From a virus (taxonomy: Duplodnaviria > Caudoviricetes), in IMG/VR virus record IMGVR_UViG_3300031555_006395, positions 17,682 to 81,681 of that record: DNA of 64,000 bases. The stretch is one strand, 5' to 3'. A model generated the notes under the pieces. It saw nothing but the letters and a program-made list of their open reading frames with translations, did not search any database and was not told the origin of the DNA. Position numbers and translations under genes: made by a program. Position 1 is the stretch's first letter. Each line of letters opens with the position of its first letter. Shown one piece after another: positions 9,351-62,218 of this stretch.

Positions 9351-12056
9351 TCAGGCTTTAGCGGAGATTCTTACCTGTCCACCAATTCTTCTCCTGGTGG
9401 CTTCGTTATTGGCTTTATAGAACTTTCGGTGTTTTGTATAACAATCTGGGCAAAGATCTTTTTGTCTGGCCGACGGATATACAGCAAATGTCTTACCACA
9501 CATATGACAAACCGCTTCACCTTTAACTCGTTCTAGATTAGAGATTTGATGATCCAAAGCGACATCACCGAAGCATTCAAAAAACACAGTTTTATTTTTT
9601 GTATTACGTTTCTCAAATAGATAACGCACCAAGACATCAACGATAAAATCGATATCCTTATACTTCTCAACGATCTCTTTACGAATTTGGCCATATACAA
9701 AAGAATAATTATTGCGCTCAGCATCACCGGTATAGAAATAAGATTTTACGGTTCTCGCATATTTTGAATAATCCTCTATCAAACTTTTCGCTAATCGAGT
9801 ATTCATTCTGACTTTAGGATTTTTCATTAATGTTGTGTGATCAAATGGACCGAGAAGATCAGCTGAAAAATAAAACTTATTTTTACCGATAATCCTTCTC
9901 ATTCGATTAACAACACTGTCGTTGATTTGTTCGACCTGACTTTCGGTTTTCCCTTTAGCCTCAACAAAAAACACAGGTAACTTCGACTTACCATAATTAG
10001 CAAACCGCTGTTCAAGCTCCGGCGGGCGAACAGGCTTGTATAACGTCTTGGCGTAATCGATTACGAAGTTATTTTCCATACAAAGAAGTTTAATTATCTC
10101 AAGATCTGGTTCGTTGCTGTTCCAGATCTTCGTTATCTTATTACTGATTTCGCCAATATTACCACCTGTGTATGCAGCAATTAAACCGTTATAAATAACT
10201 GAGGGGGTAATAACCTGAGATCCGGCTTTAGCCATATTGTAAAATAGGGGGACAATACCGTTCATATTACGTTCGGCGACAGACACAAAAGTTTCATCTG
10301 CACATACCAAACTCTTATCGCCATCATTATCGAATTGCAGCATTTTTGATATTAAATCGTGGCAACTTGTATAGATCCCTTTCGTAACAAACCATTTTCT
10401 ATACTCCGCAGCCCTTTCTGTAGCCGCAATATTGGGACGAACAGCATGTTCACGATATAAATGGGGGCTTCTGAGACAATCAAGTTTTGCGTTTTTTCTA
10501 AATAAATCGCAGAAAACCTCGTCATTTTGAAGTAAACCACTTGGGTTTTTCTCGTTTTTAAATAAAAACTGGCAAAAGGCGAACAAATCGGGGATTAAAA
10601 ACGTATAAACGCCTTTAATATCAATTTCACCGGCATAAGACTTACTTTCAATGCTATCACGTAACGACTTTATTACATTAGCAACATATGGATCCTGCAG
10701 GAGTCGCCAATCATTCGACAACATCTGTTGCAAAGGGTTTAATTTTTTCCCTGGCTTAACACCGAAAACATTTAGCATCATCTGATAATCCCGACTGAGG
10801 CGGCAAAGCTTGTCTTTTGTCTTTGCGCAAACTGCAGTTAATTCTTCATCGGTAAAATCAGTTAATGTCTGAATCATCTGATAATTTAGGGTGGCGTAAT
10901 CAAAGTCGTCCTCTTCATTGCATTTGCCAGCTTGACAGTTGTATTGCTCGTAATATTCGATGTACTGTTCCCAGCTCTCATAATACATCCACATTTTAAA
11001 CTGGCTTTTGGTGAAGATAACCTCAATTCCTTCTTCTAAAATGCGATGCTCTTTTCCGTAAATGTCTTTTACAACAACATCTTCTCCGCAATATTCAGAA
11101 ATAAAATGATCGAAAGGGAAGACCGCCAATAGACCTTTTACCCACGGTAAACGAACCATCATATTAACGTTATTTACGCGAGGCAACATCATTCCACACC
11201 CATCGGTATGAGTAATCGGTACGTCCATCATGCGACGTTCTATCCGATATGTCTTATCGTCTATGAAATCCACAAGTCCATTTACATTTGTTTCAAAATC
11301 GTCTACAACAATAGATTTATGTATATCAAAGCTCTCCCACACATCTGTGGCGCTATTACACAACGCAAGATATGCTAAGTACTTATTGACGTTTACTCCG
11401 CCGGCGGCGTTTATTTTATCTAGCGTTAGTCCACACATTAGAGTATTTTGATGTTTTTCCCACAGGCTCTCACGAATAAACACCGTCTTCTTCGTACGAA
11501 TCTGGCCGGCCGATGCTGTTAAGCAAATGTATTTTTCATCCCTCAAATAAAATCCGTTTTCAATAATGTCTTTTAATATAGGGAAATAATAAGCCCTAAC
11601 AATAATAATATCCTCACTTAACTCCCCAGTCTGCATCTGTAACGTACGTGTTAGAAATGATTCGAAAATCGAAACCACATTCGTAACCTTCAAATGGAAC
11701 TCACTAAGTTTTCTTATTTCATGATTCATAGGGAAAAGCTCGAACATTCTCTTCTTTTTACTATTGATACTTGCATTTAAAGCTTTTACAGCTGCCGGTA
11801 TACCATCGACAATTTTTTGAATTTCGTCCGGCGAAGGGAAAGGGTCGTCTTTCATTAAATGCAAACATGCTTTTATTTGCTTCTCTACTCTTTTGGTTGG
11901 TTTCATCTGATACCTTCCCCACAGAGCGGCCAACTCTTTAATACGAGATTTTTCTCCTCGATCTAAACTCATCGAAATCGCAGTATATCTTTCGTCAGCA
12001 GTGTAAAATGCGCTAGTATCAACACTATAGATATTTACCTGTCGATCTAAAGCTAT
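9351..12056 (-). CDS. yonO: YonO-like single-subunit (two-barrel, RdRP-related) RNA polymerase; ATA start
   Basis: Catalytic QFDNDGD, also TDGCG, VRLPWVKG, LRSPH. The frame extends 28 codons upstream of ATG 11972 to ATA 12056 (IALDRQVNIYSVDTSAFY) after an AGGGGCGGAG RBS. Confidence 0.9.
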   Translation of the reverse strand: MALDRQVNIYSVDTSAFYTADERYTAISMSLDRGEKSRIKELAALWGRYQMKPTKRVEKQIKACLHLMKDDPFPSPDEIQKIVDGIPAAVKALNASINSKKKRMFELFPMNHEIRKLSEFHLKVTNVVSIFESFLTRTLQMQTGELSEDIIIVRAYYFPILKDIIENGFYLRDEKYICLTASAGQIRTKKTVFIRESLWEKHQNTLMCGLTLDKINAAGGVNVNKYLAYLALCNSATDVWESFDIHKSIVVDDFETNVNGLVDFIDDKTYRIERRMMDVPITHTDGCGMMLPRVNNVNMMVRLPWVKGLLAVFPFDHFISEYCGEDVVVKDIYGKEHRILEEGIEVIFTKSQFKMWMYYESWEQYIEYYEQYNCQAGKCNEEDDFDYATLNYQMIQTLTDFTDEELTAVCAKTKDKLCRLSRDYQMMLNVFGVKPGKKLNPLQQMLSNDWRLLQDPYVANVIKSLRDSIESKSYAGEIDIKGVYTFLIPDLFAFCQFLFKNEKNPSGLLQNDEVFCDLFRKNAKLDCLRSPHLYREHAVRPNIAATERAAEYRKWFVTKGIYTSCHDLISKMLQFDNDGDKSLVCADETFVSVAERNMNGIVPLFYNMAKAGSQVITPSVIYNGLIAAYTGGNIGEISNKITKIWNSNEPDLEIIKLLCMENNFVIDYAKTLYKPVRPPELEQRFANYGKSKLPVFFVEAKGKTESQVEQINDSVVNRMRRIIGKNKFYFSADLLGPFDHTTLMKNPKVRMNTRLAKSLIEDYSKYARTVKSYFYTGDAERNNYSFVYGQIRKEIVEKYKDIDFIVDVLVRYLFEKRNTKNKTVFFECFGDVALDHQISNLERVKGEAVCHMCGKTFAVYPSARQKDLCPDCYTKHRKFYKANNEATRRRIGGQVRISAKA

Positions 12057-25173: not shown

Positions 25174-25301
25174 TGAATGAATATAAGGTAGCAATCACCA
25201 TTGAAAGTGATGAAGAAATTTATGGTGAGGAATTTTGGGTAAGAGCAGATAGCATTGATGAAGCAATGGAATATATCAAAAGTAAACTTGATGTAGATTA
25301 A
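25174..25301 (+). CDS. 42-aa acidic protein
   Basis: Not in ORF track; RBS GGAGG, GTG start; YKVAITIESDEE...VRADSIDEAMEYIK. Confidence 0.6.
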
Positions 25302-28487: not shown

Positions 28488-28516
28488 TTGAATTTATCCT
28501 ATCGTTGTGGCATACT
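28488..28516 (+). promoter_or_regulatory. promoter of the phd-doc cassette
   Basis: TTGAAT-17 nt-CATACT with TG extension. Confidence 0.6.
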
Positions 28517-28537
28517 ATTATTAAAGGAGGTATGAAA

Positions 28538-28780
28538 ATGAATGTGAATACGAATAATCTTGTGTCCATTACCGAAGCGAATCAGAATTTTTCCAAAGTG
28601 GCGCGCCTTGTTGACGAAAATGGGCCTGTTGTTATCCTGAAAAATAATGTACCCAAGTATGTTGTTATTGAATTCGATCAGGTAGCAACGGAGCAGATTG
28701 CCGGAGACGAAGATGTTAAAACTCTTTCCAAGCGTCTGATGGAAAAGAATCGTAAAGCCTACGAGGTACTTGCGAAATGA
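28538..28780 (+). CDS. phd: Phd/YefM-family antitoxin
   Basis: VSITEANQNFSKVARLVDENGPVVILKNNVPKYVV. Confidence 0.9.
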   Translation: MNVNTNNLVSITEANQNFSKVARLVDENGPVVILKNNVPKYVVIEFDQVATEQIAGDEDVKTLSKRLMEKNRKAYEVLAK

Positions 28781-29157
28781 AAAAATTAAGCTACAACCAA
28801 GTCGTTTCATTGCATCATGAAATGATTATGGAAACAGGCGGGGTAGAAGGAATTCGTGACAATACTTTGTTAGAATCAGCATTGAATGCTCCCTTTCAAG
28901 GATACCAAGACACGTATTTCTACCCAACGATCCAACAAAAAGGGGCAAGATTAGGCTATGGGCTAATTAAAAACCATGCATTTTATGACGGCAATAAGAG
29001 AATTGGCGCCCACGTTATGTTGATCTTTTTAGAATTAAATGGTGTACATCTTACATATTCTCAAGAGGAGTTGATTGATATCGTTTTGCAGATCGCAAGA
29101 GATGTTAAAACATTCGATGATTTAACTCAGTGGATCTATCAACATGAAAAGAAATAA
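28777..29157 (+). CDS. doc: Doc (Fic-family) toxin
   Basis: NHAFYDGNKRIG Fic motif; ATGA overlap with phd. Confidence 0.9.
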   Translation: MKKLSYNQVVSLHHEMIMETGGVEGIRDNTLLESALNAPFQGYQDTYFYPTIQQKGARLGYGLIKNHAFYDGNKRIGAHVMLIFLELNGVHLTYSQEELIDIVLQIARDVKTFDDLTQWIYQHEKK

Positions 29158-29192: not shown

Positions 29193-29726
29193 ATGAAAAT
29201 GAAAATGGAGGAACACACAATGATTATGAATCAAAAACACAAAACTGCAGAAGAACTGGTTGCAATGTTAAAAGATCAATACATTAGCGACTATTGCCGG
29301 ATGAATGACGCAATGAATTGCGGTTCCATTTCGCCTGAGTCAAAACAACAGTTATTTAAACTAATGAAATTTATTTTAAAAACCTTCCGCATGACAGTAG
29401 AAGAGTTCGATGCCGTTGTCGCAAAAAGTCAGGAGAAAAAGAAAGCTGCCACCGCAAATGAAATCCAAAATATTATTCTTCTACATAAGGCTGGGTATAA
29501 AAACTATCAGATCGCTGATTTCATGCACTGGGATCCAATTAAAGTTGGTCGAATTTTAATTGAAAATGGCTATCGGCAAAAAACTGTACATAGAAGAAAA
29601 AAGAGCGAAATGGCCCAAGCAGAAATAATTATGGTAGATGATTTCCGTAAAGCTATGAAAAAACTTCCCCAGTCTGAGCAGCGGAGAATTGAAAAGGTAT
29701 TTCAAATTCTTAGCGCAATGAATTAA
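29193..29726 (+). CDS. hypothetical protein with HTH-like segment
   Basis: GYKNYQIADFMHWDPIKVGRIL. Confidence 0.6.
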   Translation: MKMKMEEHTMIMNQKHKTAEELVAMLKDQYISDYCRMNDAMNCGSISPESKQQLFKLMKFILKTFRMTVEEFDAVVAKSQEKKKAATANEIQNIILLHKAGYKNYQIADFMHWDPIKVGRILIENGYRQKTVHRRKKSEMAQAEIIMVDDFRKAMKKLPQSEQRRIEKVFQILSAMN

Positions 29727-29727
29727 C

Positions 29728-29755
29728 TTGACATAACCAACCATTATGATAAGAT
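29728..29755 (+). promoter_or_regulatory. sigma-A promoter
   Basis: TTGACA-16 nt-TAAGAT with TG extension. Confidence 0.6.
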
Positions 29756-29771
29756 GAAGGGGGTGATGAAT

Positions 29772-30044
29772 ATGGGTATTAAATGGAAACCGTTTATGAT
29801 TTTTTTCTTCATTATAGGAATACTTTGGGTTTTAGTTGGTATCATTGATGCTGATTATCAACCAGAAGCAATATCGTTCGGATTACTTTGTATGTTTCCT
29901 TTTGCAATCTATCGTCTCAGTTTGCTTCAAGATCGCTTAGAAGAAAAAGATAATAAGGACGAAAATCAAATCAGTATTCCAAGTGAAACCCAAGAGGAAA
30001 CAAAGGATGAAAGAGATAAATTTTTTGATCCAGAAGATTATTAA
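29772..30044 (+). CDS. two-TM membrane protein with acidic tail
   Basis: Hydrophobic N-terminal half; own promoter. Confidence 0.7.
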   Translation: MGIKWKPFMIFFFIIGILWVLVGIIDADYQPEAISFGLLCMFPFAIYRLSLLQDRLEEKDNKDENQISIPSETQEETKDERDKFFDPEDY

Positions 30045-30084
30045 AAGAAAATGGAAATATCTGGTAAATCAATTTTATTCTATA

Positions 30085-30112
30085 TTGACATTTTAATCAT
30101 ATTATATATAAT
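30085..30112 (+). promoter_or_regulatory. sigma-A promoter
   Basis: TTGACA-16 nt-TATAAT. Confidence 0.7.
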
Positions 30113-30124
30113 GAAATTGAAAGG

Positions 30125-31663
30125 ATGATAAAAATGAAAACAATGGATGTACATAACTGGAATGACTTTAAAAATAATTCGATGGAGAGGGTTCGCCTTC
30201 TCGATACGATTGTAAGAGCTGTTGAATACGATGGCGGTGCAGAATGTATTGCCGGTACGAATACTCTTGACGAGATTAAGTCTTTATTCCCTCAGTACAG
30301 AAAGACTTATAAAAATAATAAACTTTACATTGAAAAGGAGCAGAGAACTATGAAAACTATCGCCAACATGAATCACGAAGATACTTACGAAATGGATAAT
30401 GTTATCAGTTTGAATATGCTGGATGCGGAAGACATTATCAATGACGAGATCGATAGCGCCGATGAAGAGCAGGTAATGGAGGCCGACGAAGTAATGGAGG
30501 CTCTGAGCGCCGCAGCCGAAGAGCTCGATGATGAAAATGAAATTGAAATGAAGCAGCATGATTGGTCTTCTGAAACAATTACCGTCAGAGCTCTTTTAAA
30601 AAGATATAAGGACAATAAAATTGAATTGCCGCTGTGCCAGAGACTTTATGTCTGGACAAAGAACCAGCGTGAAGCATTGATGGATTCTGTACGTCTTGGT
30701 CTCCCTTGTGGAATGATCATTGTTGCTGATGTAGACGGCAAAAAATATCTTCTCGATGGACTGCAGAGAACAACGTCGCTGATGCTTATGAGCGACAACA
30801 AGAATCTGACCGCCGAAGAAAAGAAAATGATTCTGGATTATAAGATTACCATTGGAACGGTTTACGATATGGACATTGCCACTATGAAAATGTATTTTGG
30901 TCGATTGAATAGCGGTATGGCTTTGGCTACTGCAGTCAAAGAGAGATCGAAACTTTCTGAAGCTATCAATAACGCCATCCTGAAGGTCGCCAGTCATCCT
31001 TTCTTTAGAGATGCCGATACAAATGCCACTTTCAAAAAGGCGCATCATCATGAGCTGATCGCCATGAATTCGCTTTTGGCGGCTTCTAAATGCGATCAGA
31101 CGAAGAATAACGCAAAAGAGTTGGGCAGAGCGCTGGCCGCAAATGAAAACGTGATTCTGGAAAATGTAGATAAAGCCTGTAAGCTTGTTGAGCGTATGAT
31201 GAACGTAATGGCTGAGCTGCCCGCTGCGGTTATGAAACGCGCCATGAATGCAAACTATATTGGAGTGTTGGCATTTGTACTGGCTCGAAATGAAATCAGC
31301 GATAAAGCTGTAAAAGCTGCAACCGAATATATCTTTAAAGATAAACGAGCGGTAAAATCTTATTCCCGTACTACCAGTTCTGGTGCCGGTGATCTTCGTA
31401 TGGTGAAACAGAGATACGACGTGATTCTCGATGTAGTTAAAACATACAGTGATGCCGGATCGACCAATGAAGATGCTTTTAAAGTTTGGTGCCAGGACAA
31501 TAGTAATGGTGTATTGAAAACTTCTGATAAAGAGTATATCGTGGACTTCAATGAGTTTATTCAGGCGGAAAAAGAGGCGTTGTTTAATGCGATGCGAAAG
31601 AATGATATGAAAACCTACGATAAAATTATCCGTACTACCTATAATAACTTGGAGGCAGAGTAA
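30125..31663 (+). CDS. DUF262 (GmrSD N-terminal/ParB-Srx fold) protein with acidic tract; second in-frame start at 30348
   Basis: LPLCQRLYVW, GLPCGMII, LLDGLQRTTSL; internal RBS AAAGGAG. Confidence 0.75.
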   Translation: MIKMKTMDVHNWNDFKNNSMERVRLLDTIVRAVEYDGGAECIAGTNTLDEIKSLFPQYRKTYKNNKLYIEKEQRTMKTIANMNHEDTYEMDNVISLNMLDAEDIINDEIDSADEEQVMEADEVMEALSAAAEELDDENEIEMKQHDWSSETITVRALLKRYKDNKIELPLCQRLYVWTKNQREALMDSVRLGLPCGMIIVADVDGKKYLLDGLQRTTSLMLMSDNKNLTAEEKKMILDYKITIGTVYDMDIATMKMYFGRLNSGMALATAVKERSKLSEAINNAILKVASHPFFRDADTNATFKKAHHHELIAMNSLLAASKCDQTKNNAKELGRALAANENVILENVDKACKLVERMMNVMAELPAAVMKRAMNANYIGVLAFVLARNEISDKAVKAATEYIFKDKRAVKSYSRTTSSGAGDLRMVKQRYDVILDVVKTYSDAGSTNEDAFKVWCQDNSNGVLKTSDKEYIVDFNEFIQAEKEALFNAMRKNDMKTYDKIIRTTYNNLEAE

Positions 31664-34100: not shown

Positions 34101-34122
34101 GGGAGAGGTTACGACCTCTCCC
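34101..34122. terminator. hairpin at convergent transcription units
   Basis: GGGAGAGGT-TACG-ACCTCTCCC. Confidence 0.65.
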
Positions 34123-34558
34123 TTCCCATCAGCTCAAGTTTTAAATCTACGTATTGTTGCGGGATACCGGCAAGAATCGCAAGTTGCTCTTTTGAAAAAC
34201 TGATATGTTCTTCAATGAAATCATCAGATAACAATAACTCTGCTACAAAAAGATTTGCCTCTCGTTCAGGACGATATTCAAATCCCCAGGGTGAATCCGC
34301 TTCTGTGAATGCGGCCAAATGACGATGCAGAACCTGGTGTGCAATCTCGTGAGCAATAACAACCCTCTTTTCCTCATCGCTCAAATCTTCTTTTAACAAA
34401 ATGTAATCGAATCCAAACGAGGAATAAAATAATCCCTTCGTTTTATTCAGAGGGCGTTCCCAAATTTCAATGCAAAGACATTCACATAATTCATACGGAT
34501 CTCTTGTTCCATATAAAGAAATCAATTCTAAGGCTTTGCTTTTAATGAAACTTTTCAA
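34109..34558 (-). CDS. ImmA/IrrE-family metallopeptidase (anti-repressor)
   Basis: AHEIAH (HExxH), EREANLFVAELLL; GTRDPYELC N-terminus. Confidence 0.9.
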   Translation of the reverse strand: MKSFIKSKALELISLYGTRDPYELCECLCIEIWERPLNKTKGLFYSSFGFDYILLKEDLSDEEKRVVIAHEIAHQVLHRHLAAFTEADSPWGFEYRPEREANLFVAELLLSDDFIEEHISFSKEQLAILAGIPQQYVDLKLELMGRERS

Positions 34559-34564
34559 TTATAA

Positions 34565-34939
34565 TTACTCCTCATTTTTCGATTTGGCGATTCCGGCTTT
34601 GATTTTGGCATCAATATACATTTCTGAAATCGCATTATAAATAATTCCCAAATCGTTTTCATCCATTTTTCCACCCATATATAAAGCGGAAATCTGATTA
34701 ATAACTTCTTTGGGATCATTATAATTTATATCTTGTCCAATAAAGCGGTCTTCAACTAGAGCTGCGGGAGAAACATTTAAAGCTTGGGCTAAGCTGTTAA
34801 TACTTTTTAGAGTTGGCTGCTTTTCGTTACGCTCCCAAACACCAATGGATCTATCGGAGATACCCAGCTTTTCCGCAAGTTCAACTCTTGTCATTCCTGC
34901 ATTCGTTCGAATGGTTTTCAAATTATCTCCAAAACTCAT
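34565..34939 (-). CDS. XRE-family repressor (ImmR-like)
   Basis: FGDNLKTIR...MTRVELAEKLGISDRSIGVWERNEKQP. Confidence 0.9.
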   Translation of the reverse strand: MSFGDNLKTIRTNAGMTRVELAEKLGISDRSIGVWERNEKQPTLKSINSLAQALNVSPAALVEDRFIGQDINYNDPKEVINQISALYMGGKMDENDLGIIYNAISEMYIDAKIKAGIAKSKNEE

Positions 34940-34952
34940 GCTTTCTGTCCCC

Positions 34953-34981
34953 TTTACAAACTAAAAGATGTATGATATTAT
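34953..34981 (+). promoter_or_regulatory. rightward switch promoter
   Basis: TTTACA-17 nt-TATTAT with TG extension. Confidence 0.7.
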
Positions 34982-35038
34982 GACTTTGCAATCTTTAAAA
35001 CGGATATTTAATCAAAAAACAATTTTTAAGTTGTTTTT

Positions 35039-35067
35039 ATTCTATCAAAACATACTTGCTTTGTCAA
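35039..35067 (-). promoter_or_regulatory. leftward (repressor) promoter, face-to-face with 34953
   Basis: TTGACA-17 nt-TAGAAT with TG extension. Confidence 0.8.
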
Positions 35068-35083
35068 CAAAAGGAGTCAAAAA

Positions 35084-35395
35084 ATGAAGCTTTTAAACGA
35101 AGAAATTGAAACGATGTATTCTGATTACGATTTCTCTGGCTTGATTGTAAATTCACTGCCAAACCAAGTAGAATATCTTCTCCCAATTGTTCCACAGGTG
35201 AATTTTATTTTTGACGATTTTTTCTACCGGAATGAAATCGATATCCCGTTTGATAGTTCTTATTATTTAAGGATTATCCGTTCAGCGACGGCATTTTTAT
35301 TCGATCTATTTGCTTGTGATGATAATGCGAATTTCACCTCTGTACATATTCAATCTGTCGAAGATTGGATTTTAAAAAAGGTTGCAATTTTATAA
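35084..35395 (+). CDS. acidic hypothetical protein
   Basis: RBS AAGGAG; first gene after the switch. Confidence 0.7.
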   Translation: MKLLNEEIETMYSDYDFSGLIVNSLPNQVEYLLPIVPQVNFIFDDFFYRNEIDIPFDSSYYLRIIRSATAFLFDLFACDDNANFTSVHIQSVEDWILKKVAIL

Positions 35396-35410
35396 AGAAT
35401 ATGGTATTCT
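35382..35410 (+). promoter_or_regulatory. sigma-A promoter for the YopQ/MrpR-like operon
   Basis: TTGCAA-17 nt-TATTCT with TG extension. Confidence 0.65.
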
Positions 35411-35420
35411 TTACTAAGAG

Positions 35421-36722
35421 GTGATAAAATTGATTCATAACAGAGAAGAGCTTAATAAAGCCCTACAAACAATTTTTCAAACGAATGATGCTGTACTGCG
35501 TTCTGGCGCAGCTCAAAAACTTTATGAAAATAAAGGTATTTCCCAAATTGAAGTATTTAATATTTGGGGTGGAAATACGGCCATCGAAGATGCTCCTGAT
35601 GAATTAGTTTGTGCTCTGGCTCAATTTCTTCACCCTCACAACAAGAGATTGTTACAAGGATGGGATACTCTTTTTACAGATGAAGTGAAAAATAAATCCT
35701 TTAAACAAAAAACGGATGATGAAAAGACTTACCCAATTATTATTAAAAATGCAGTTTTAATTAACCATAATCATTACCTTGCATCGATTCACATTTCGCA
35801 ACTGTTTAAGCTTCAGCATCAAGGTTTACTGAGACGAGAAGCAGATACACAGCGAGAAACCATTACAAAGGTTGTCAATGGTGTGAAAATCTCGTATATC
35901 AACGTGGATTATGACCAGGTGTTTCAAATTGCGAAGGCATTAAAAGAACGAAAATATTTCCCCGATGAGCTTAAAATTAATATCATTGATAATGGAAACG
36001 CCCTATTTGAATATGATGATAATAAAAAAGAGTTAATTATTCGCGCCGGCGATTTAAGCGTTGTCGATGGTAATCACCGTCTTTTGGCGATTGAAGCTGC
36101 GATGGGGGAGGATCCTACAATAGACTTATCTTTCCCTGTATCGATAACCTATTATCCAATTTGGAAATCGCAGGAAATGTTAATCCAACAGGAGAAAAAG
36201 CGCCCCATCAATAAAGCTTTGATTAAAACGTTTGCAAATACGCAGGAAAATGCTGTCGTAGCTGAAATTTATCGAAATAACCTGCTCATGCCTGGACTTG
36301 AGATTACTAAAGAAGAATACGCAGCATATAATGGTTATGCGCATATTCTGTATTCTGACCTTGCTGATGCTGTTAATTTAAGCTACTCTCAAACAGAAAT
36401 AGCGATGAAAAAAGATGAGGTCGTCGAGAATGTCGTAAAAGCAATCAATCTCTTCGCAATGAATAAATCTCATTTCTTTTTCAATGAGTCAGGGTCGATT
36501 CGACGTAGAAATCTATTCATTAAAAAATGCGGCGGTTTGTACTATATGATTAAAGCGTATCAATATGCTCAAAAGAGTACGGATTCCAGTGCAGTTTATT
36601 TAAATATTATTGAAAATACAGATTATGATCGTTATTCCTATGCATTTACTCATGCAGGGCCTAACAATCTAAACCAGGTTCAGGCAATCGATCGTTTGAT
36701 TGAGGAGGCCGCTCATGCTTAA
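35421..36722 (+). CDS. DGQHR/DndB-like (ParB-fold) protein, SPbeta YopQ-like
   Basis: VVDGNHRLLAI motif, QRET, QQEKKRPI; synteny with the MrpR-like gene. Confidence 0.7.
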   Translation: MIKLIHNREELNKALQTIFQTNDAVLRSGAAQKLYENKGISQIEVFNIWGGNTAIEDAPDELVCALAQFLHPHNKRLLQGWDTLFTDEVKNKSFKQKTDDEKTYPIIIKNAVLINHNHYLASIHISQLFKLQHQGLLRREADTQRETITKVVNGVKISYINVDYDQVFQIAKALKERKYFPDELKINIIDNGNALFEYDDNKKELIIRAGDLSVVDGNHRLLAIEAAMGEDPTIDLSFPVSITYYPIWKSQEMLIQQEKKRPINKALIKTFANTQENAVVAEIYRNNLLMPGLEITKEEYAAYNGYAHILYSDLADAVNLSYSQTEIAMKKDEVVENVVKAINLFAMNKSHFFFNESGSIRRRNLFIKKCGGLYYMIKAYQYAQKSTDSSAVYLNIIENTDYDRYSYAFTHAGPNNLNQVQAIDRLIEEAAHA

Positions 36723-37662
36723 CGAAGAATTAAAAATGGAATATCTAAATGCTGTTTGTATGAACGCTCCCGAATCCCGCAGAACGGTTTATATAAACAA
36801 AATGAAACGCCTGTCTCAGAATATTGAGGTTGTCTTTAATAAGGATTTTTGCAATATTTCATTTGGAGAATACCAAGCTTTCTTTACAAGCGGCGCTTAT
36901 TCTGATACCCGTACTGCCGGTAATGATTTACGTTTCATTTCGAATTATATCGAGTGGTGTTTTTACAACAACAAATTCCCACGTGTGATGAATAATGCGC
37001 AGCTTTTGTTAAAACAGCTGAAGCCAACAGATATTGTTAAAGGTGCCATTCGAAACAAGATTTTATTTTCACCTGCAGAATTAATCGATTATATAGATAT
37101 ATTGTGTTCAGGAAGTTCAAAATACTACTTGTTTATGCCTGTTTCAATTCTTCTGTTTTCTGGTGTTTCGTTCGATGAAATACACTTGATCAAACGCGAT
37201 GATATTGATAATCTTGCGATGACAATTCATTTCAACGATGTAATTTTAGATATTCCCCATGAATTTCAATTACACGTTAATAGAATTCTAAATCGAGAGA
37301 AAAAAGTTGAGGTCTTCGCTTTTAGAACCGATGATTCTCGTTCGTACACAATGTATGACGCATATCCGGATATGTTTTGTACTGTATATAATCACACAGG
37401 TATTCCACCGTCAAATTCGATACAGAAATCTTATACTGTCTCTTTATCTACCGCAAAGGCAGCTGTTGATACGGGAGTTAAAAAAATCGGACCGTTGGAT
37501 ATTGCTATCTCAGGTTTATTTTATCGGTTAAATAAAAACAAATATACGGATTTAAATAATCCATTGGCGCAGCAATTTTTATTGAGATTTAATAATTCTG
37601 GAAATAAAATGAAAGAATTAACCCTGTTATATAGTGAGTATTTAGATAGTATAAATGAATAG
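36715..37662 (+). CDS. catalytically dead tyrosine-recombinase-fold protein, SPbeta MrpR/YopR-like repressor
   Basis: MLNEELKMEYL N-terminus; LLFSGVSFDEI (box I Arg absent); PLDIAISGLFYR; no HxxR. Confidence 0.75.
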   Translation: MLNEELKMEYLNAVCMNAPESRRTVYINKMKRLSQNIEVVFNKDFCNISFGEYQAFFTSGAYSDTRTAGNDLRFISNYIEWCFYNNKFPRVMNNAQLLLKQLKPTDIVKGAIRNKILFSPAELIDYIDILCSGSSKYYLFMPVSILLFSGVSFDEIHLIKRDDIDNLAMTIHFNDVILDIPHEFQLHVNRILNREKKVEVFAFRTDDSRSYTMYDAYPDMFCTVYNHTGIPPSNSIQKSYTVSLSTAKAAVDTGVKKIGPLDIAISGLFYRLNKNKYTDLNNPLAQQFLLRFNNSGNKMKELTLLYSEYLDSINE

Positions 37663-37683
37663 AAGCCCAATTATTTGGGCTTT
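37663..37683 (+). terminator. intrinsic terminator
   Basis: AAGCCCAA-TTAT-TTGGGCTTT. Confidence 0.7.
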
Positions 37684-37707
37684 ATAATATTAAATGAAAT
37701 TAAACTA

Positions 37708-37736
37708 TTGATAAAATTAGAGTTTTATGTTATAAT
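37708..37736 (+). promoter_or_regulatory. mazF promoter with an embedded palindrome
   Basis: TTGATA-17 nt-TATAAT; TAAAA-TTAGAG-TTTTA at 37712-27. Confidence 0.75.
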
Positions 37737-37765
37737 AACGACACCAAAACGAAAGGAGGACGTCA

Positions 37766-38107
37766 ATGGAAACAATTAAACGAGGAGATATTTATTATGC
37801 AGATCTTAGCCCCGTTGTTGGATCTGAGCAGGGAGGGACCAGACCAGTAATTGTATTACAAAACAATACCGGCAACCGTTTTTCTCCAACAATTATCGTT
37901 GCTCCGTTTACCAGTAATAAAGGGAAAAAGATGCTGCCAACACATCTTTTGATGAAAAGCGAAGAAACGGGATTGCCGAAGGATTCCATCGTCCTGCTCG
38001 AACAGGTGAGATCAATCGATAAAAGTCGATTGGTTAGCGAAAACGTTGGAAAGATTCGGAATTTGGATACTTTAAATGAAATCATTAAAGTAGCTTTTTT
38101 TGGGTAA
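37766..38107 (+). CDS. mazF: MazF/PemK endoribonuclease (no adjacent antitoxin)
   Basis: IKRGDIYYADLSPVVGSEQGGTRPVIVLQNNTGNRFSPTIIVAPFTS; LLEQVRSIDKSRL. Confidence 0.93.
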   Translation: METIKRGDIYYADLSPVVGSEQGGTRPVIVLQNNTGNRFSPTIIVAPFTSNKGKKMLPTHLLMKSEETGLPKDSIVLLEQVRSIDKSRLVSENVGKIRNLDTLNEIIKVAFFG

Positions 38108-38167
38108 TCAATAATAAAATTGATTACATCGATTTATAATAAAATGAAGCGCTATGCCGCTTCATAT

Positions 38168-38259
38168 GGGAAGTTGGCTGAGTGGTTGAAAGCGGCGGTC
38201 TTGAAAACCGCTGATGGAGTCAAATCCATCCGAGGGTTCGAATCCCCCACTTCCCGCCA
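38168..38259 (+). tRNA. tRNA-Ser(UGA)
   Basis: GCGGT-CTTGAAA-ACCGC; long variable arm; CCA. Confidence 0.93.
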
Positions 38260-38262
38260 AAT

Positions 38263-38338
38263 GCGGTCGTAGCTCAAATGGCGGAGCATCTGCCTTCCAA
38301 GCAGAGGGTTGCGAGTTCGATTCTCGTCGGCCGCTCCA
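38263..38338 (+). tRNA. tRNA-Gly(UCC)
   Basis: TCTGC-CTTCCAA-GCAGA; U73; CCA. Confidence 0.93.
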
Positions 38339-41582: not shown

Positions 41583-41813
41583 ATGGCAATGAAACCGCAA
41601 CAGTTACAAGAGTTTGAAAAAATGGTGCATGACAAAATGAAACAGGTATACAACGATGGAATGACTGTGGGCGCAAAAGCAATTATGTCTGCTATTAATG
41701 ATATGATTGAGCGTGGAAAAGGTCGGCCTTGCAAAATGATTCTTTCTGAAATCAAAAGCTTTGTCAGCACCGCCGTAAGGGAGGAAAACGATGAGAATAC
41801 TTCTGCTTCTTAG
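41583..41813 (+). CDS. hypothetical protein
   Basis: RBS AGGAGG. Confidence 0.7.
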   Translation: MAMKPQQLQEFEKMVHDKMKQVYNDGMTVGAKAIMSAINDMIERGKGRPCKMILSEIKSFVSTAVREENDENTSAS

Positions 41814-44007
41814 AGGTAGTCCTGGTTGTGGAAAAACGACTTGGATTGAAAAAAATGGTTTAAAACCATACACTCTGTCTGCCGACGATATTCGCATGAT
41901 GTGCCAAAGCCCAATTTTAACTGTTAATGGCGGCGAAGCAATTGATCAAACGAACGATAAATTGGTTTGGCAGACATTATTTAAATTACTTGAAAATCGA
42001 ATGGAAAAGGGCGCTTTCACGGTAATCGATGCAACAAATTCTAAAACGACTGAAATGAATCGGTATAAAACTTTATGTGAGACATATCGCTATCGTATTT
42101 ATTGTGTCGATTTTACTGATATCCCTATTGATGAAGCAAAACGCAGAAATAAATGCCGTCCTTTATCGAAAGTCGTTCCTGAAGAAGTAATCGATAAAAT
42201 GTATTCCAGATTTGCAACTCAGAAAATACCCTCTGGCATTAAAGTAATTCGTCCTGACGAATTAGACTCTATTTGGATCCACAAAATTGATCTTTCGCAA
42301 TACAATAAAGTCCATATGATTGGCGATATTCATGGGTGTTGCACTGTATTAAAAGAATATATGGATGCAAATTGGAATGAAAATGATTTTTATATTTTTT
42401 GCGGAGATTATATCGATCGTGGCATTGAGAACGTACAGGTAATTAATTATCTGCTTTCTATTTATACCAAGCCTAATGTTTTATTATTAGAGGGTAACCA
42501 TGAACGATGGCTTCAGATATATGCTCATGGAGGAGCAACCAGGTCACAAGAATTTGAAACGCATACAAGAGCCCAGTTAGATGCAGCCAATTTCGACAAT
42601 CGACAGCTCCGGCAGCTATACAGGAAACTTGGACAATGCGCTTACTTTTCCTTCGGTGACTACACTTATCTTGTAACGCATGGTGGCTTAAGCCAAATTC
42701 CAATCAATCTCAGTTTAGTTCCTACACATCAAATGATTCATGGAGTTGGCAGCTACAGTGATTATGAAAAGGTTGCCGACACTTTTTATTATTGTACCCC
42801 TGAGAAAACCTATCAGGTTTTTGGGCATCGAAATATTAAAAATGCTCCTATTCAATTAAACGATAAAGTATTTGATCTCGAAGGTGGAGTTGAGTTTGGC
42901 GGATCTTTGCGATGTGTCCAATTTGCGAAAGATGGATCTTTTGAAACATTTTCAATAAAGAATAATGTGTATCGTCAAACTGAATCAAAACCTCAAGAGG
43001 TATCGAATAATAAAACCGTTGCCGACATTATTGTTGAGTTCCGAAATAATAAGTATATCAAGGAAAAGAAGTTTGGTAATATATCATCTTTTAACTTTAC
43101 CCCTACAGCGTTTTATGAAAAGATTTGGGATTCTCAAACTATTAAGGCCAGAGGACTATATATCGATATTGAAAAACAAAAAGTAGTTGCACGCAGCTAT
43201 GAAAAGTTTTTTAGAATTAACGAGCGGCCGGAAACGAAGTTGGAGATGTTGCAGTATAAACTTCAATTTCCAATTAGCATTTATGTTAAAGAAAATGGAT
43301 TTTTGGGAATTGTTAGCTACGACGAGTATAAAGATGATCTGTTTGTAACAACGAAATCTGATCCTACCGGTGATTACGCAGAATGGTTAAAGGCTATGTT
43401 ATGCGAGAAATTATCGGATCAACAGAGATTACAGTTAAAGGAATACTGCAAACAGCATAATGTTTCCTTTATTTTCGAATGTGTTGATATGAAAAACGAT
43501 CCTCATATCATCGAGTACCAAGACAATCAACTGTATTTGTTGGACATTATAAAAAACGCAATTACATTTGAAAAATTGCCATATGAGGATCTTTGTCATG
43601 TTGGTCATAGTATTGGACTGCTTGTTAAAACGAAAGCTTGCGATATATGCACTTGGCAGGAGTTTTACGATTGGTATCATGAGGTCAACTTAGAGGATTA
43701 TGAATATAATGGCGCACCGGTCGAGGGTTTTGTTATTGAGGATTCGAAAGGATATATGGTAAAGGTAAAACTTCATTATTATAACTTTTGGAAATTCATG
43801 AGAGGCATCTCCCATGAAACCCTTCGGAAAGGATATATTTCAAAAACATCTTCATTAACATCAGCGCTGGCGAATCAATACTACGGGTGGCTTAAATCTA
43901 TTTATGATCCACAGAATCGTGATCAAATACCGAAAGATATTATTACATTAAGAAAAATGTTTTATATCGCAATGGCTGAAAAGGAGGGGTTTTCCAATGA
44001 TTGTTAA
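41791..44007 (+). CDS. trifunctional RNA repair enzyme: polynucleotide kinase, metallophosphatase and T4 Rnl1-like RNA ligase
   Basis: GSPGCGKT P-loop; GDIHG, GDYIDRG, GNHE; KENG (motif I), EGFV, VKVK. Confidence 0.88.
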   Translation: MRILLLLRGSPGCGKTTWIEKNGLKPYTLSADDIRMMCQSPILTVNGGEAIDQTNDKLVWQTLFKLLENRMEKGAFTVIDATNSKTTEMNRYKTLCETYRYRIYCVDFTDIPIDEAKRRNKCRPLSKVVPEEVIDKMYSRFATQKIPSGIKVIRPDELDSIWIHKIDLSQYNKVHMIGDIHGCCTVLKEYMDANWNENDFYIFCGDYIDRGIENVQVINYLLSIYTKPNVLLLEGNHERWLQIYAHGGATRSQEFETHTRAQLDAANFDNRQLRQLYRKLGQCAYFSFGDYTYLVTHGGLSQIPINLSLVPTHQMIHGVGSYSDYEKVADTFYYCTPEKTYQVFGHRNIKNAPIQLNDKVFDLEGGVEFGGSLRCVQFAKDGSFETFSIKNNVYRQTESKPQEVSNNKTVADIIVEFRNNKYIKEKKFGNISSFNFTPTAFYEKIWDSQTIKARGLYIDIEKQKVVARSYEKFFRINERPETKLEMLQYKLQFPISIYVKENGFLGIVSYDEYKDDLFVTTKSDPTGDYAEWLKAMLCEKLSDQQRLQLKEYCKQHNVSFIFECVDMKNDPHIIEYQDNQLYLLDIIKNAITFEKLPYEDLCHVGHSIGLLVKTKACDICTWQEFYDWYHEVNLEDYEYNGAPVEGFVIEDSKGYMVKVKLHYYNFWKFMRGISHETLRKGYISKTSSLTSALANQYYGWLKSIYDPQNRDQIPKDIITLRKMFYIAMAEKEGFSNDC

Positions 44008-59795: not shown

Positions 59796-59953
59796 AAAAA
59801 CGATAAAAATGAAAAAATCCAATTGTCATTTTTCCCCCTAAAATAGGGCGAAATCGTCGAATGAAAAAATGAGATTTTTTGAATAAAATTGTTATTTTAT
59901 TATGAGGTAAGCTTTGAAAGGGTACCCGCCTCCTGGACGCAGGAGGAATTATT

Positions 59954-62218
59954 ATTACACAGCATGTTTCTGTTTTATCATTGTTTGACGGTATGTCTTG
60001 CGGAATGATTGCAATGAAAAACGCAGGAGTCACCGTGAACAAATACATATCATACGAAATAGATAAATTTGCAATTAAAGTATCGAGTCACAATTTTCCA
60101 GAGATAAAACAATGCGGGGATGTATTCGCTGCAGATTTTACAAAATGGTTGGGGATAGACTATTTGATCGGAGGGAGCCCCTGCTTTACGAAGGGACATC
60201 TCGTTCTGACAAAAGATGGGTATAAAGATGTATCTGAAATTCAAATTGGCGATATGGTTCTAACTCATGCTGGCGAATATCATAAAGTTGTTCGAACTAA
60301 TACTAGGATTGCAGATACTTACGCAGTAAAAATCGTTGGATATCCGGAGTTTATCACAACTGCAGGACACCCCTTTTATACTATTAAAAAAAGAAAGGCA
60401 AGTTATTCTGAATATGTCTCCACGCATTCACAACGTATATTTTCAGAAGAGCCAGAGTGGACTCCGGCATCAGCCTTGACATCCAATCACTTTTGTGGGC
60501 AACACTTAAAAGCTTCTGCAGTAGTTGATAATGATTTTTTAACAACTGAATTGTGTTGGCTATTGGGAAGATATTTGGCTGATGGACATATTAGAAAGGA
60601 CAAAAGAAAAGAGCGGAAAAATAGTTTTATTTACCAGCTTATTATTTCTGTTGGCAAAGATAAATTAAATGACTTTAAAGCCCATGTCAAAGAACGACAT
60701 TATTCATGCTATAAGCACACGCAATCTGTTTACCGATGCACTTTCTCATCGCAACAACTCGTTGAGTATGTCATTGAGAATCGTTTCGGAGATCATTCGT
60801 ACAATAAACGTATTCCCGAATTTATTTACAGCTTAAGTTATGAAAAAAGAAACGCTTTTTTAGAGGGCTATTTAAGCGGGGACGGATGTTATAACAAAAA
60901 TTCAGATTCGTGGGCAATGAGTACGGTAAGTAAAGAGTTGGCTTTTGGACTGCAGAGATTGATTACAACACTTTATCAGACAAACGCTGGCGTATCAATT
61001 GCTCCTATTCGTGATGGCCATATGATTGATAATCGAATTATTAAAGCAAATTACCCTTTATATATTGTTCAATTTAAGAAACAAATTCGAAAACAGTCTG
61101 TGGCTTATATTCAAAATAATATTATTTGGACTCAAGTTAAAGCAGTCAAACCAACCGGCAAGAAAGAGGTTGTTTATAACATCGAAGTTGAAAAGGACCA
61201 TTCGTATACGGTCAATAATTGTATTGTACATAATTGTACCCATTGGTCTATTGCGCAAACAAAAAACAGAGAAACTGAAGCGAGTGGAGTAGGTTGGGAA
61301 TTATTTTCTCAGTATGTTCGTGCATTACGCGAAGCAGCACCGAAATTTTTCATTTATGAAAATAACAAATCAATGTCTGCTGCGATCCGAAAAAGCATTT
61401 CAGATACGTTTGGATTTGAACCTATTTGTATAAATTCAGCTCTTGTTTCTGCTCAGAATAGGGAACGTCTATATTGGGTCGGTGAGCGCAACGATGATGG
61501 TACGTATAGTAAAGTAAATGTTGAGCAACCCCAAGATAAGGGAATAATGTTAAAAACAATTCTTGAGATTGCGACATCTGAAAAAGGATATACCTTAAAA
61601 CCTTTGTCTACAAAAGAAATGGAGTATATGGTGCGTACCATTAAAGATGGGCGAAACCATTTTGATTTTGGATATATCCAAGATGCCACTAAAGATAAGG
61701 GCAAGTGTCTGACAGCAAATGTTAGCAAGGGGGTACCATACAATGTTTGTTGTGTGCCAATTAGAATAGGGACTATTGAAAATAGTCTCAAAAATCCGGC
61801 ACACAATTCAAAACAGTATCGTGTTTATTCTCCCGAAGGCAAGTCCACTACTCTTTGCGGCCAAGGCGGAGGCGTAGGAGCAAAAACTGGTTTATATGCT
61901 TGCCCCATTAATATTAATAATACACATAACGATGATATGGTCTTTCCGATCTATAAAGTGGAAAATGGCATGATTGGAGTAAATGATAGTTTATACCCAA
62001 TTAAATTGCCAGATGGATATTATATTATAAGAAAACTGACTGTTAACGAATGTAAACGACTGCAGACAGTTCCTGATTGGTATGATATGACTTGTTTAAG
62101 CGACACACAGGCTTATAAATGTTTAGGTAATGGATGGACTGTAGATGTAATCTCGCATTTAATTAAAGCGACATTAGCGCAATATGACGAAGAGAAGGAA
62201 AGAGGCGAAGCTCAATAA
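59954..62218 (+). CDS. C5 DNA cytosine methyltransferase with intein; probable ATT start
   Basis: VLSLFDG motif I lies upstream of the ORF-track start; GGSP|C, YENN, QNRERLYW, RKLT..EC.RLQ, LGNGW. Confidence 0.88.
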   Translation: MTQHVSVLSLFDGMSCGMIAMKNAGVTVNKYISYEIDKFAIKVSSHNFPEIKQCGDVFAADFTKWLGIDYLIGGSPCFTKGHLVLTKDGYKDVSEIQIGDMVLTHAGEYHKVVRTNTRIADTYAVKIVGYPEFITTAGHPFYTIKKRKASYSEYVSTHSQRIFSEEPEWTPASALTSNHFCGQHLKASAVVDNDFLTTELCWLLGRYLADGHIRKDKRKERKNSFIYQLIISVGKDKLNDFKAHVKERHYSCYKHTQSVYRCTFSSQQLVEYVIENRFGDHSYNKRIPEFIYSLSYEKRNAFLEGYLSGDGCYNKNSDSWAMSTVSKELAFGLQRLITTLYQTNAGVSIAPIRDGHMIDNRIIKANYPLYIVQFKKQIRKQSVAYIQNNIIWTQVKAVKPTGKKEVVYNIEVEKDHSYTVNNCIVHNCTHWSIAQTKNRETEASGVGWELFSQYVRALREAAPKFFIYENNKSMSAAIRKSISDTFGFEPICINSALVSAQNRERLYWVGERNDDGTYSKVNVEQPQDKGIMLKTILEIATSEKGYTLKPLSTKEMEYMVRTIKDGRNHFDFGYIQDATKDKGKCLTANVSKGVPYNVCCVPIRIGTIENSLKNPAHNSKQYRVYSPEGKSTTLCGQGGGVGAKTGLYACPININNTHNDDMVFPIYKVENGMIGVNDSLYPIKLPDGYYIIRKLTVNECKRLQTVPDWYDMTCLSDTQAYKCLGNGWTVDVISHLIKATLAQYDEEKERGEAQ
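60182..61234 (+). mobile_element. intein with LAGLIDADG endonuclease (351 aa) at the MTase catalytic Cys
   Basis: Starts CFTKGHLV, ends IVHN, +1 Cys; YLADG and YLSGDG motifs. Confidence 0.92.

Follow-up and report, generated by a model that had tools for sequence, protein, structure and literature searches.

The region described here extends from position 34109 to 38107 of a 64,000-nucleotide window taken from a virus genome (Duplodnaviria; Caudoviricetes; IMG/VR record IMGVR_UViG_3300031555_006395, positions 17,682 to 81,681 of the record). It comprises six genes: an immR-immA-like pair on the minus strand and, divergent from it, a small open reading frame (ORF) that we call orf103, a homologue of the SPbeta lysogeny regulator SroE (YopQ), a candidate repressor of the SroF/MrpR type and a mazF gene with no mazE at its side. 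An ORF check combined with domain searches placed all six genes where the first-pass annotation had put them (Table 1). The searches covered the complete source contig of 81,681 bp, for which CheckV estimates a completeness of ~67%, and the negative results given below apply to these visible two-thirds of the genome. The contig has a GC content of 35-40% and carries a gene kit resembling that of SPbeta, with DnaE, a primase, an ATP-dependent ligase, the large terminase and two tyrosine recombinases. The phage is probably temperate and roughly 120 kb in size, and its host is probably a low-GC Firmicute of the Clostridia type. A prophage copy was not found in 185k species genomes, where the best matches reached 60% identity in Thomasclavelia and Clostridia metagenome-assembled genomes (MAGs). 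Compared as DNA with the phage collection, the region had no counterpart beyond short matches at MazF and tRNA genes. The favoured identity of the region and its surroundings is the lysis-lysogeny control region of a temperate phage.

Table 1. Genes and predicted signals of the control region, of the transcription unit behind it and of other parts of the window (window coordinates; nt, nucleotides; aa, amino acids).
Feature	Position	Strand	Matches and remarks
Predicted intrinsic-terminator-like hairpin	34101-34122	-	9 pairs, 6 GC, T-rich tail; closes the immR-immA operon
ImmA-like M78 (COG2856) metalloprotease, 149 aa	34109-34558	-	Peptidase_M78 6.7e-14; phrog_87 metallo-protease 3.6e-19
ImmR-like Xre-family helix-turn-helix (HTH) repressor, 124 aa	34565-34939	-	HTH_3 2.1e-13; NCBIfam RstR family repressor 2.7e-15
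Predicted control region	34940-35083		between immR and orf103; two face-to-face promoters
Predicted P(+), towards orf103	34953-34981	+	TTTACA-17-TATTAT with TG, 10/12
Predicted P(-), towards immR	35067-35039	-	TTGACA-17-TAGAAT with TG, 11/12
orf103, acidic ORFan	35084-35395	+	isoelectric point 4.1, 16 D+E vs 6 K+R; first gene of the rightward operon
SroE/YopQ-like DGQHR (DndB/ParB-like) protein, 433 aa	35421-36722	+	DndB 8.7e-07; phrog_5732 1.9e-39
SroF/MrpR-like repressor candidate, 315 aa	36714-37662	+	ORF open from 36700 (320 aa); MrpR_N_CB (PF22822) 9.8e-12
8-bp hairpin, then TATAATATT	37663-37682	+	directly after the sroF-like stop; scan lists the stem on the minus strand
Predicted mazF promoter	37708-37736	+	TTGATA-17-TGtTATAAT, extended -10, 11/12 sigma-A
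Ribosome binding site of mazF, AAAGGAGG	37753-37760	+	strong
Orphan mazF, 113 aa	37766-38107	+	PemK_toxin (PF02452) 3.2e-29
Hairpin	38144-38165	+	between mazF and tRNA-Ser
tRNA-Ser(UGA)	38168-38259	+	
tRNA-Gly(UCC)	38263-38338	+	
Radical-SAM protein, 289 aa	38358-39227	+	Radical_SAM 1.8e-08
Kinase-phosphatase-RNA ligase fusion (Pnkp + Rnl1 type)	41791-44007	+	RNA_lig_T4_1 1.2e-41; AAA_33 3.6e-20; Metallophos 4.4e-13
873-aa protein	9351-11972	-	Pfam RdRP 1.1e-13
phd-doc pair	28505-29157		Phd/YefM 91 aa (PF02604 1e-07), 4-nt overlap with Doc 126 aa (Fic/DOC 1.1e-14)
DUF262/GmrSD_N-type protein, 512 aa	30085-31663		Pfam 2.4e-18; PADLOC NsnA/HEC-05-like

The two genes of the leftward operon lie on one strand, immA following immR after 6 nt. 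The first reading had described an Xre protein and an HExxH protease divergent from a DGQHR protein, and both the domain matches (HTH_3, Peptidase_M78) and the strand layout agree with this. In its translation the protease shows H70ExxH74 and a downstream EREAN motif. The pair resembles the ImmR/ImmA switches of the ICEBs1/phi105 type in the combination of an Xre HTH protein with an M78 HExxH protease at a distance of 6 nt, in the organization as one operon and in the divergent orientation towards the presumed target operon. It differs from them in that behind immA stands a terminator in place of an integrase and a second repressor system, of the SPbeta type, is present at the same locus. PADLOC matched the ImmA-like protein to CapP (7e-13) and the ImmR-like protein to CapH (6.1e-9). 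CapH/CapP and DdrO/IrrE are grouped into the same families as ImmR/ImmA, and the PADLOC match therefore cannot separate a switch from a defence-type cargo cassette. The Xre/M78 proteins were also considered as an antitoxin pair for MazF, which is unlikely at a distance of 3 kb, on the opposite strand and with a terminator of their own.

In the rightward operon orf103 comes first. Its product had no match in Pfam, PHROGs, NCBIfam or PADLOC and none in the PDB, and among 5.8e9 clusters no relatives beyond its own 90% cluster were detected. Look-alikes from the Atlas (condensation-domain fragments, score ~0.9) were within the chance range and were discarded. The protein is small and acidic like Sar, yet shows no detectable similarity to it; a Sar-like antirepressor is a possible assignment. 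The DGQHR protein encoded next, directly upstream of the sroF-like gene, can be aligned to YopQ of SPbeta with 25% identity over 241 aa (BLASTP, pairwise E 4e-14), and its columns Q144-R145 and D216-G-x-H219-R220 are invariant. Judged by its sequence, this protein is genuinely homologous to SPbeta YopQ/SroE, if only distantly.

For the sroF-like gene the ATG at 36714, which lies behind GAGGAGG, is likely the true start. Close relatives of its product were found neither in viral contigs nor in the phage collection, and the 5.8e9-cluster index returned solely the protein's own cluster. Among 1.84e9 representatives 49 relatives were detected at E <=1e-3, all with <=33% identity save a 72-aa fragment. 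All 41 aligned relatives (41/41) carry MrpR_N_CB and none of them (0/41) matches the integrase catalytic domain PF00589. An AlphaFold2 model built on this alignment (pLDDT 84.8, pTM 0.79) was compared with the PDB using Foldseek. Ranks 1-6 were taken by 9rd5, 8bpz, 8bj6, 9rgl and 8a0a (E 2e-9 to 3e-8), that is by phi3T SroF on DNA (9rd5), YopR (8bpz/8bj6), a SroF-Sar complex and MrpR (8a0a), and Tn1549 Int, XerA, lambda Int and Cre ranked below them. When the protein was aligned by hhalign to six real integrases, two of them from the same phage, Ser157 was found at the position of Arg-I, a Leu at His-II and an Ala at Arg-II; the alignment stops short of the position of the catalytic Tyr. With the fold matched and Arg-I, His-II and Arg-II all replaced, the earlier description of a protein with a recombinase fold that lacks the catalytic residues therefore holds. 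From sequence and model the protein is predicted to be a recombinase-derived, catalytically dead DNA binder, and the loss of catalytic residues parallels that reported for MrpR (PMC10516654).

Residues 4-100 of the MazF protein align with the Bacillus MazF/EndoA structures 7bxy, 4hke, 4mdx and 4me7 (E 4e-33 to 1.5e-32), and the identity to Bacillus MazF is ~65% over residues 4-93. The catalytic residues Arg26 and Thr49 (R25 and T48 in B. subtilis) are retained, together with the conserved segments GSEQGG(T)RP, which contains the catalytic Arg, A-x-x-T, which contains the Thr, NRFSPT, LPTH and LLEQ.R.ID. By these features the gene product is an intact-looking endoribonuclease. Its gene starts 103 nt behind the sroF-like stop codon. 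The hairpin at the beginning of this gap is predicted to be a weak terminator or insulator, and the promoter behind it is one of eight promoter-like sites in the contig that match at least 11/12 positions; the gene-proximal ones among them serve immR, mazF, the GmrSD-like nuclease and a tyrosine recombinase.

Since the gap upstream of mazF is occupied by the promoter and tRNA-Ser begins 61 nt past the mazF stop, there is no room for a mazE gene beside mazF. Neither MazE_antitoxin (PF04014) nor RHH_1 (PF01402) found a match in the 81.7-kb contig (67% of the genome), with positive controls. The contig likewise contains no counterpart of the MazE-like upstream ORFs collected from 34 genomic mazF loci, nor of a 140-aa ORF from a Clostridia MAG, where it overlaps with mazF. 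Taken together with the catalytic residues and the 11/12 promoter, this bears out the first-pass description of an intact-looking mazF that has its own promoter and no mazE. The missing antitoxin is not a general habit of the phage, because the same genome keeps a canonical, overlapping phd-doc pair. In comparison to canonical mazEF (B. subtilis ndoAI-ndoA; 4ME7, 4MDX) the fold family, the ~65% identity, the catalytic Arg and Thr and the RNA-binding segments are shared. Here, in contrast, an antitoxin gene neither adjoins mazF nor occurs elsewhere in the 81.7 kb, the gene has its own promoter, the C-terminal 20 residues of the protein diverge and tRNA genes come next. We searched the contig also for mimics of MazE using the pattern M-x3-Y-x-[DE]-M, which describes the MazF-binding helix of MazE, AimX and YosL. 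The only match in a real ORF was MYDAYPDM in the SroF-like protein (residues 218-225, 37351-37374). It contains a proline and is located in a low-confidence loop, ~0.3 hits were expected, and we treated it as a chance match.

Identical MazF proteins are recorded on 17 contigs (JGI, Logan, ENA), accompanied by variants of 98-99% identity. The next relatives are chromosomal MazF proteins of Clostridia (Caproiciproducens, Oscillospiraceae, Thomasclavelia) with 58-69% identity. The occurrence on 17 contigs and the 30-point identity gap to bacterial MazFs argue that mazF is specific to this lineage, has been maintained in it and was not captured recently. Beside the retained catalytic residues and segments, the recurrence of the exact protein also counts as a sign of a functional MazF. 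Many of the Clostridia chromosomal mazF loci among the 34 lack an abutting upstream ORF of at least 35 aa; at these loci either mazE is very small or orphan mazF genes are common in the clade. On MAG contigs assigned to Clostridia and Eubacterium sp. CAG:180 (L072 1-3983; L071) immA-immR is divergent from a small operon ending in mazF. This operon encodes a Zn-ribbon protein, two HTH-like proteins and the 140-aa ORF mentioned above, which overlaps the MazF gene by 16 nt. The MAG MazF is 52% identical to the phage protein, and a non-canonical antitoxin is a possible role for the product of the 140-aa ORF.

We did not detect a promoter-like site between mazF and tRNA-Ser, nor a plus-strand terminator from mazF to 46145. 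Led by mazF, a terminator-free run thus comprises two tRNAs, the radical-SAM gene, seven further tRNAs and the gene of the kinase-phosphatase-RNA ligase, and extends to at least 46145. The tRNAs of the contig amount to 12 in total. The kinase-phosphatase-ligase is a single chain encoded directly behind the 7-tRNA array and also matches the NCBIfam bacterial Pnkp model (1.6e-18). From its place next to the promoter, mazF looks like the leading gene of a unit of the early type, a position that would suit a takeover RNase and a decision effector alike.

For Firmicute MazF the motif UACAU (B. subtilis) is cited in PMC10769878 and 10.1101/2023.04.27.537455. The first-pass annotation had proposed depletion of the cleavage motif in phage genes as a check. 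Run with UACAU, this check gave no depletion genome-wide: the phage genes contain 97 sites against 96.0 expected from synonymous-codon shuffles (z 0.12, rank 562/1024 among pentamers). At the locus itself the sense strand is free of UACAU from 35348 to 38124, a block that corresponds exactly to the sroE-like, sroF-like and mazF genes. Among 96 gene runs of at least 2.6 kb it is the sole one without a site (3.4 expected, Poisson P 0.03). The last site before the block is located in orf103 (35343), and the first one behind it at 38125, in the 3' untranslated region (UTR) 18 nt past the mazF stop. The opposite operon has sites in the 5' UTR of immR (34968) and in immA (34401). The UACAU-free block weakly favours a link between mazF and the switch; it is suggestive, not decisive.

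The spacer of the mazF promoter is exactly filled by the palindrome TAAAATTAGAGTTTTA (37712-37727), which has the form TAAAA-N6-TTTTA. Exact copies of this form are present at 25299, 25925, 37712 and 59884, three of them upstream of other genes; the copy at 59884, TAAAATTGTTATTTTA, is situated ~80 nt upstream of a C5 methylase gene. Two further copies with one mismatch (34996-35011 and 35013-35028) lie between the immR and orf103 promoters. For intergenic regions 0.06 exact copies were expected and three were found, and the family-wise p over all half-sites and spacings is ~0.04. At this marginal level the palindrome is a candidate shared operator of a dimeric HTH protein, a lead and no more. 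A repeat comparable to SPBRE, the long operator that repressors of the SroF/MrpR family bind at several intergenic sites, was not detected: exact 10-12-mers common to at least 3 intergenic regions were tRNA sequences and A/T runs only, and 16-mers with <=3 mismatches yielded just the AT-rich palindrome family. A LexA box (CGAAC-N4-GTTCG) is absent from the contig at <=1 mismatch, and matches with two mismatches are at chance level.

MrpR/SroF is the repressor of SPbeta (PMC10516654), and proteins of the SroE/SroF type have been defined experimentally as lysogeny regulators (PMC10516654; 10.1101/2025.11.27.690993). In phi3T, host MazF promotes lysogeny, and AimX and YosL hold MazF off (PMC10769878); this role was reported to be specific to phi3T and was not found in SPbeta (bioRxiv 10.1101/2023.04.27.537455). 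The background given at first pass thus has its counterpart in the literature, apart from this nuance on SPbeta. With the SPbeta/phi3T sro operon the locus shares the order and orientation of a DGQHR protein followed by a dead recombinase-fold repressor. The fold of this repressor is matched best by SroF and MrpR, and a YonO-type polymerase, DnaE and the ~120 kb size are further common features; the RdRP match of the 873-aa protein reads as the signature of the YonO-type single-subunit RNA polymerase of SPbeta. A MazF endoribonuclease belongs to the phi3T decision network as well (PMC10769878), there encoded by the host and here by the phage. The differences are considerable. Sequence identity to the SPbeta operon is only ~15-25%, sroA-D and an upstream YopP-like integrase are missing, so that only orf103 precedes the sroE-like gene, and the contig has no AimR, LexA box, detectable SPBRE-like repeat or recognised MazE mimic of the AimX/YosL type.

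The Pfam model of AimR (PF22871) remained empty at E up to 1, with a positive B. subtilis control, and the SPbeta AimR protein found nothing either, which agrees with the earlier statement that no aimR is visible; the contig searched is ~67% complete. For comparison we surveyed the synteny of 41 viral loci encoding YopQ-like proteins in windows of 7 kb. The adjacency of YopQ and YopR is general outside C. difficile phages (41 loci), and a YopP-like integrase usually precedes the two; the trio YopP-YopQ-YopR has been kept in SPbeta, Geobacillus virus E3 and two divergent loci (L009, L013). In a tblastn search of these loci with SPbeta AimR, the gene was found solely beside Bacillus SPbeta-like sro operons. 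Since a missing arbitrium system is the rule in the sampled YopQ/YopR loci that are not SPbeta-like, the lack of AimR here is unremarkable, and the earlier emphasis on a switch wired to ImmA "instead of arbitrium" loses its special meaning. In five whole records of divergent SroE/F phages an M78 protease was not found, and genes of the PemK family occur in Geobacillus virus E3 alone, in the tail module.

Phage-borne MazF is a known annotation class (phrog_1936, "MazF-like growth inhibitor"), with members in E3 (GP40), the Enterocloster phage PMBT24 and Psychrobacillus phage Perkons. Like the gene studied here, they are MazF-family genes of large Firmicute siphophages, and in PMBT24 and Perkons, too, a mazE-like gene is not annotated beside them. 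Unlike it, they are distant from any lysogeny switch and belong either to tail modules or to groups of small early genes. The MazF of PMBT24 (6989-7345), annotated as "mRNA interferase", is 56% identical to the protein described here and encoded amid tail genes; ORF37 of Perkons belongs to the MazF family and lies among small early genes; and the PemK/MazF genes of E3 are located at record 29435-31140, ~75 kb from its sroE/sroF pair. PMBT24 is called virulent (PMC11035940), and the paper on this phage does not discuss its MazF copy. In E3 a small ORF, GP39, lies upstream of GP40 and could encode an antitoxin. We noticed that in the tail modules of both E3 and PMBT24 the MazF/PemK genes are placed just before the tape-measure gene, a recurrent placement. 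A peptide-pattern scan for the MazF under study gave no other viral contig and, in metagenomes, one unrelated locus of the chromosomal type. As far as seen, no other lineage has mazF behind sroF with a promoter of its own. Functional studies of the E3, PMBT24 and Perkons MazFs were not found in the literature searched, nor was a description of a locus that unites ImmR/ImmA and SroE/SroF with an orphan MazF on a phage genome.

T4 RegB is a phage-encoded, sequence-specific mRNA endoribonuclease without an antitoxin; it is made early and cuts host messages as well as early phage messages. The likeness to the MazF described here is one of presumed function only. RegB comes from a virulent phage, has another fold and another motif and is not tied to repressor genes.

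Our tentatively favoured interpretation is that of a repressor-controlled, early-fired phage mRNA interferase which spares the SroE/SroF and MazF messages and thereby biases the switch to repression. mazF would have a regulation of its own and be switched off in the lysogen; the candidate operator is the palindrome between the -35 and -10 elements of its promoter. It would fire when the switch opens, that is upon infection or upon ImmA-mediated loss of ImmR, and the protein would then cleave host RNAs and most RNAs of the phage at sites of the UACAU type. Free of such sites, the sroE-like, sroF-like and mazF messages would survive; sites are present in the immR-immA and orf103 messages. Overall, the MazF arm, which phi3T takes from the host, would here be supplied by the phage: lytic expression would be damped and the repressor would accumulate, leading to lysogeny or dormancy. 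Collateral damage to RNA may be kept in bounds by the tRNAs of the phage and its healing-and-sealing enzyme. We consider a stricter version unlikely, in which MazF is made from an operator-bearing promoter under the ImmR/ImmA damage switch, destroys host RNAs, most phage RNAs and with them the immR-immA and orf103 RNAs, and spares sroE-sroF-mazF, so that a signal of short duration is turned into dominance of the repressor, and hence lysogeny or dormancy, with neither arbitrium nor host MazEF.

The functional part of this interpretation is drawn from the adjacency of the genes, the UACAU-free block (P ~0.03) and the shared palindrome (family-wise p ~0.04). Of the circuit proposed at first pass the anatomy is therefore confirmed, whereas the proposed role of MazF, to act under ImmA as an effector of the decision or of dormancy, has adjacency and two marginal signals on its side. 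Several observations weigh against the interpretation. The link of mazF to the switch is the gene order of one genome: in none of the 41 other YopQ-like loci (0/41) does a MazF or a relative of this ImmA/ImmR occur within 7 kb, and the MazFs of virulent PMBT24, Perkons and E3 stand in unrelated contexts, so phage MazFs need not serve lysogeny. The UACAU specificity of the phage MazF is assumed from the ~65% identity. As phage genes in general are not depleted in the motif, the replication and structural messages of the phage itself would be cut too if MazF is active. By chance, ~2-3 gaps as long as the UACAU-free block are expected in the 73 kb of coding sequence, and the sro operon of SPbeta, with 9 sites in 4.3 kb, is not free of the motif. 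The AT-rich palindrome was noticed post hoc and has marginal significance, the tRNA/RNA-repair unit led by mazF fits an early lytic role equally, and the unseen third of the genome could hold an antitoxin or arbitrium genes.

Two other explanations are nearly as likely as the favoured one, and two more are less so. A possible account, though improbable taken singly, is that mazF heads an early operon leading into the replication genes and encodes an RNase for host takeover during early lytic growth, with no role in the decision and an accidental adjacency to the repressor genes. As with T4 RegB, the enzyme would stop translation in the host and degrade early messages, while the tRNAs and the RNA-repair enzyme of the phage would sustain its own translation. 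This agrees with its promoter-proximal position in a run with 9 tRNAs and the kinase-phosphatase-ligase, uninterrupted by a promoter-like site in front of tRNA-Ser. MazF cleavage leaves 2',3'-cyclic phosphate and 5'-OH ends, and such ends are the substrates of Pnkp/Rnl1-type repair, as is generally known. The occurrence of a related MazF in a virulent phage (PMBT24), the filing of phage MazFs under host takeover by PHROGs and the lack of conservation of mazF with sroE/sroF in the 41 loci point in the same direction. Against a takeover function it can be held that the phage's own late and replication messages, not being depleted in UACAU, would be cut, that no MazF inhibitor was recognised which would end the shut-off, and that the sole UACAU-free run coincides with the repressor pair and not with lytic genes. 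Unlikely, if well short of negligible, is a moron or defence toxin expressed in the lysogen, kept in check by host MazE or an unrecognised phage factor and serving to reinforce the abortive or non-abortive defence by host MazEF, superinfection exclusion or host dependence. A hairpin, an own promoter and a single gene make up a moron-like anatomy, and the few other near-consensus sigma-A promoters serve genes that one would expect a lysogen to express (immR, the GmrSD-like nuclease, the tyrosine recombinase). The neighbourhood is rich in accessory and defence genes (phd-doc, and the DUF262/GmrSD-like gene with PADLOC matches), and neutralization by a host MazE is conceivable, as the nearest relatives are chromosomal Clostridia MazFs (58-69%). 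MazEF has moreover been reported to restrict SPbeta-like phages without antitoxin mimics (10.1101/2023.04.27.537455). Such a toxin would nonetheless be without an antitoxin in 81.7 kb, whereas phd was kept for doc; with no terminator after mazF, transcription from its promoter in the lysogen would continue into the tRNAs and the early genes behind them; and MazF itself had no PADLOC match.

It is quite improbable that the HTH/M78 pair is the damage-responsive regulator of a defence-like operon consisting of orf103, the DGQHR gene, the recombinase-like gene and perhaps mazF, as in a cargo cassette of the CapH/CapP type, and that the true phage repressor is encoded elsewhere. The PADLOC matches to CapP and CapH would fit, but they do not discriminate, CapH/CapP and ImmR/ImmA being the same families. 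DGQHR/DndB-like ParB-fold proteins do occur in DNA-modification defence contexts, pairs of Xre and COG2856 proteins are known partners of toxin modules, and the 4-kb Clostridia MAG contig shows immA-immR divergent from an operon ending in mazF. In sequence, fold and adjacency, however, the DGQHR and recombinase-like proteins are specifically SroE/YopQ- and SroF/MrpR-like, and PADLOC is empty for both of them and for MazF. Scarcely probable, finally, is a neutral or decaying passenger, captured without mazE from a bacterial mazEF locus and tolerated through poor expression or inactivity. That mazF is an orphan and is not conserved in related lysogeny modules would be in line with it; the intact frame, the retained catalytic residues, the near-consensus promoter and the ribosome binding site are not, and the identical protein on 17 contigs from several sources, with just 98-99% variants, as well as the 30-point gap to the nearest bacterial MazF speak against a recent capture.

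In phi3T host MazF is the effector by which phage communication picks lysogeny. Under the favoured interpretation, a phage with its own MazF behind SroE/SroF and with site-free repressor messages would be a self-contained natural experiment on a decision driven by RNA cleavage. The locus also shows that repressors of the SroE/SroF type can be paired with an ImmR/ImmA damage sensor in place of LexA/Sar and arbitrium, which extends the family beyond Bacillus. If instead the takeover or the defence explanation were true, this would be among the clearest cases of an antitoxin-less MazF heading a tRNA and RNA-repair unit.

Other parts of the window were also inspected. The phd-doc pair constitutes addiction equipment in the style of P1 and may hint at a plasmid-like prophage state. 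The GmrSD-like gene stands behind a perfect 12/12 sigma-A promoter (30085-30112) and likely encodes a prophage-borne defence nuclease. The C5 cytosine methylase gene (59981-62218) is split by an intein with a LAGLIDADG homing-endonuclease domain.

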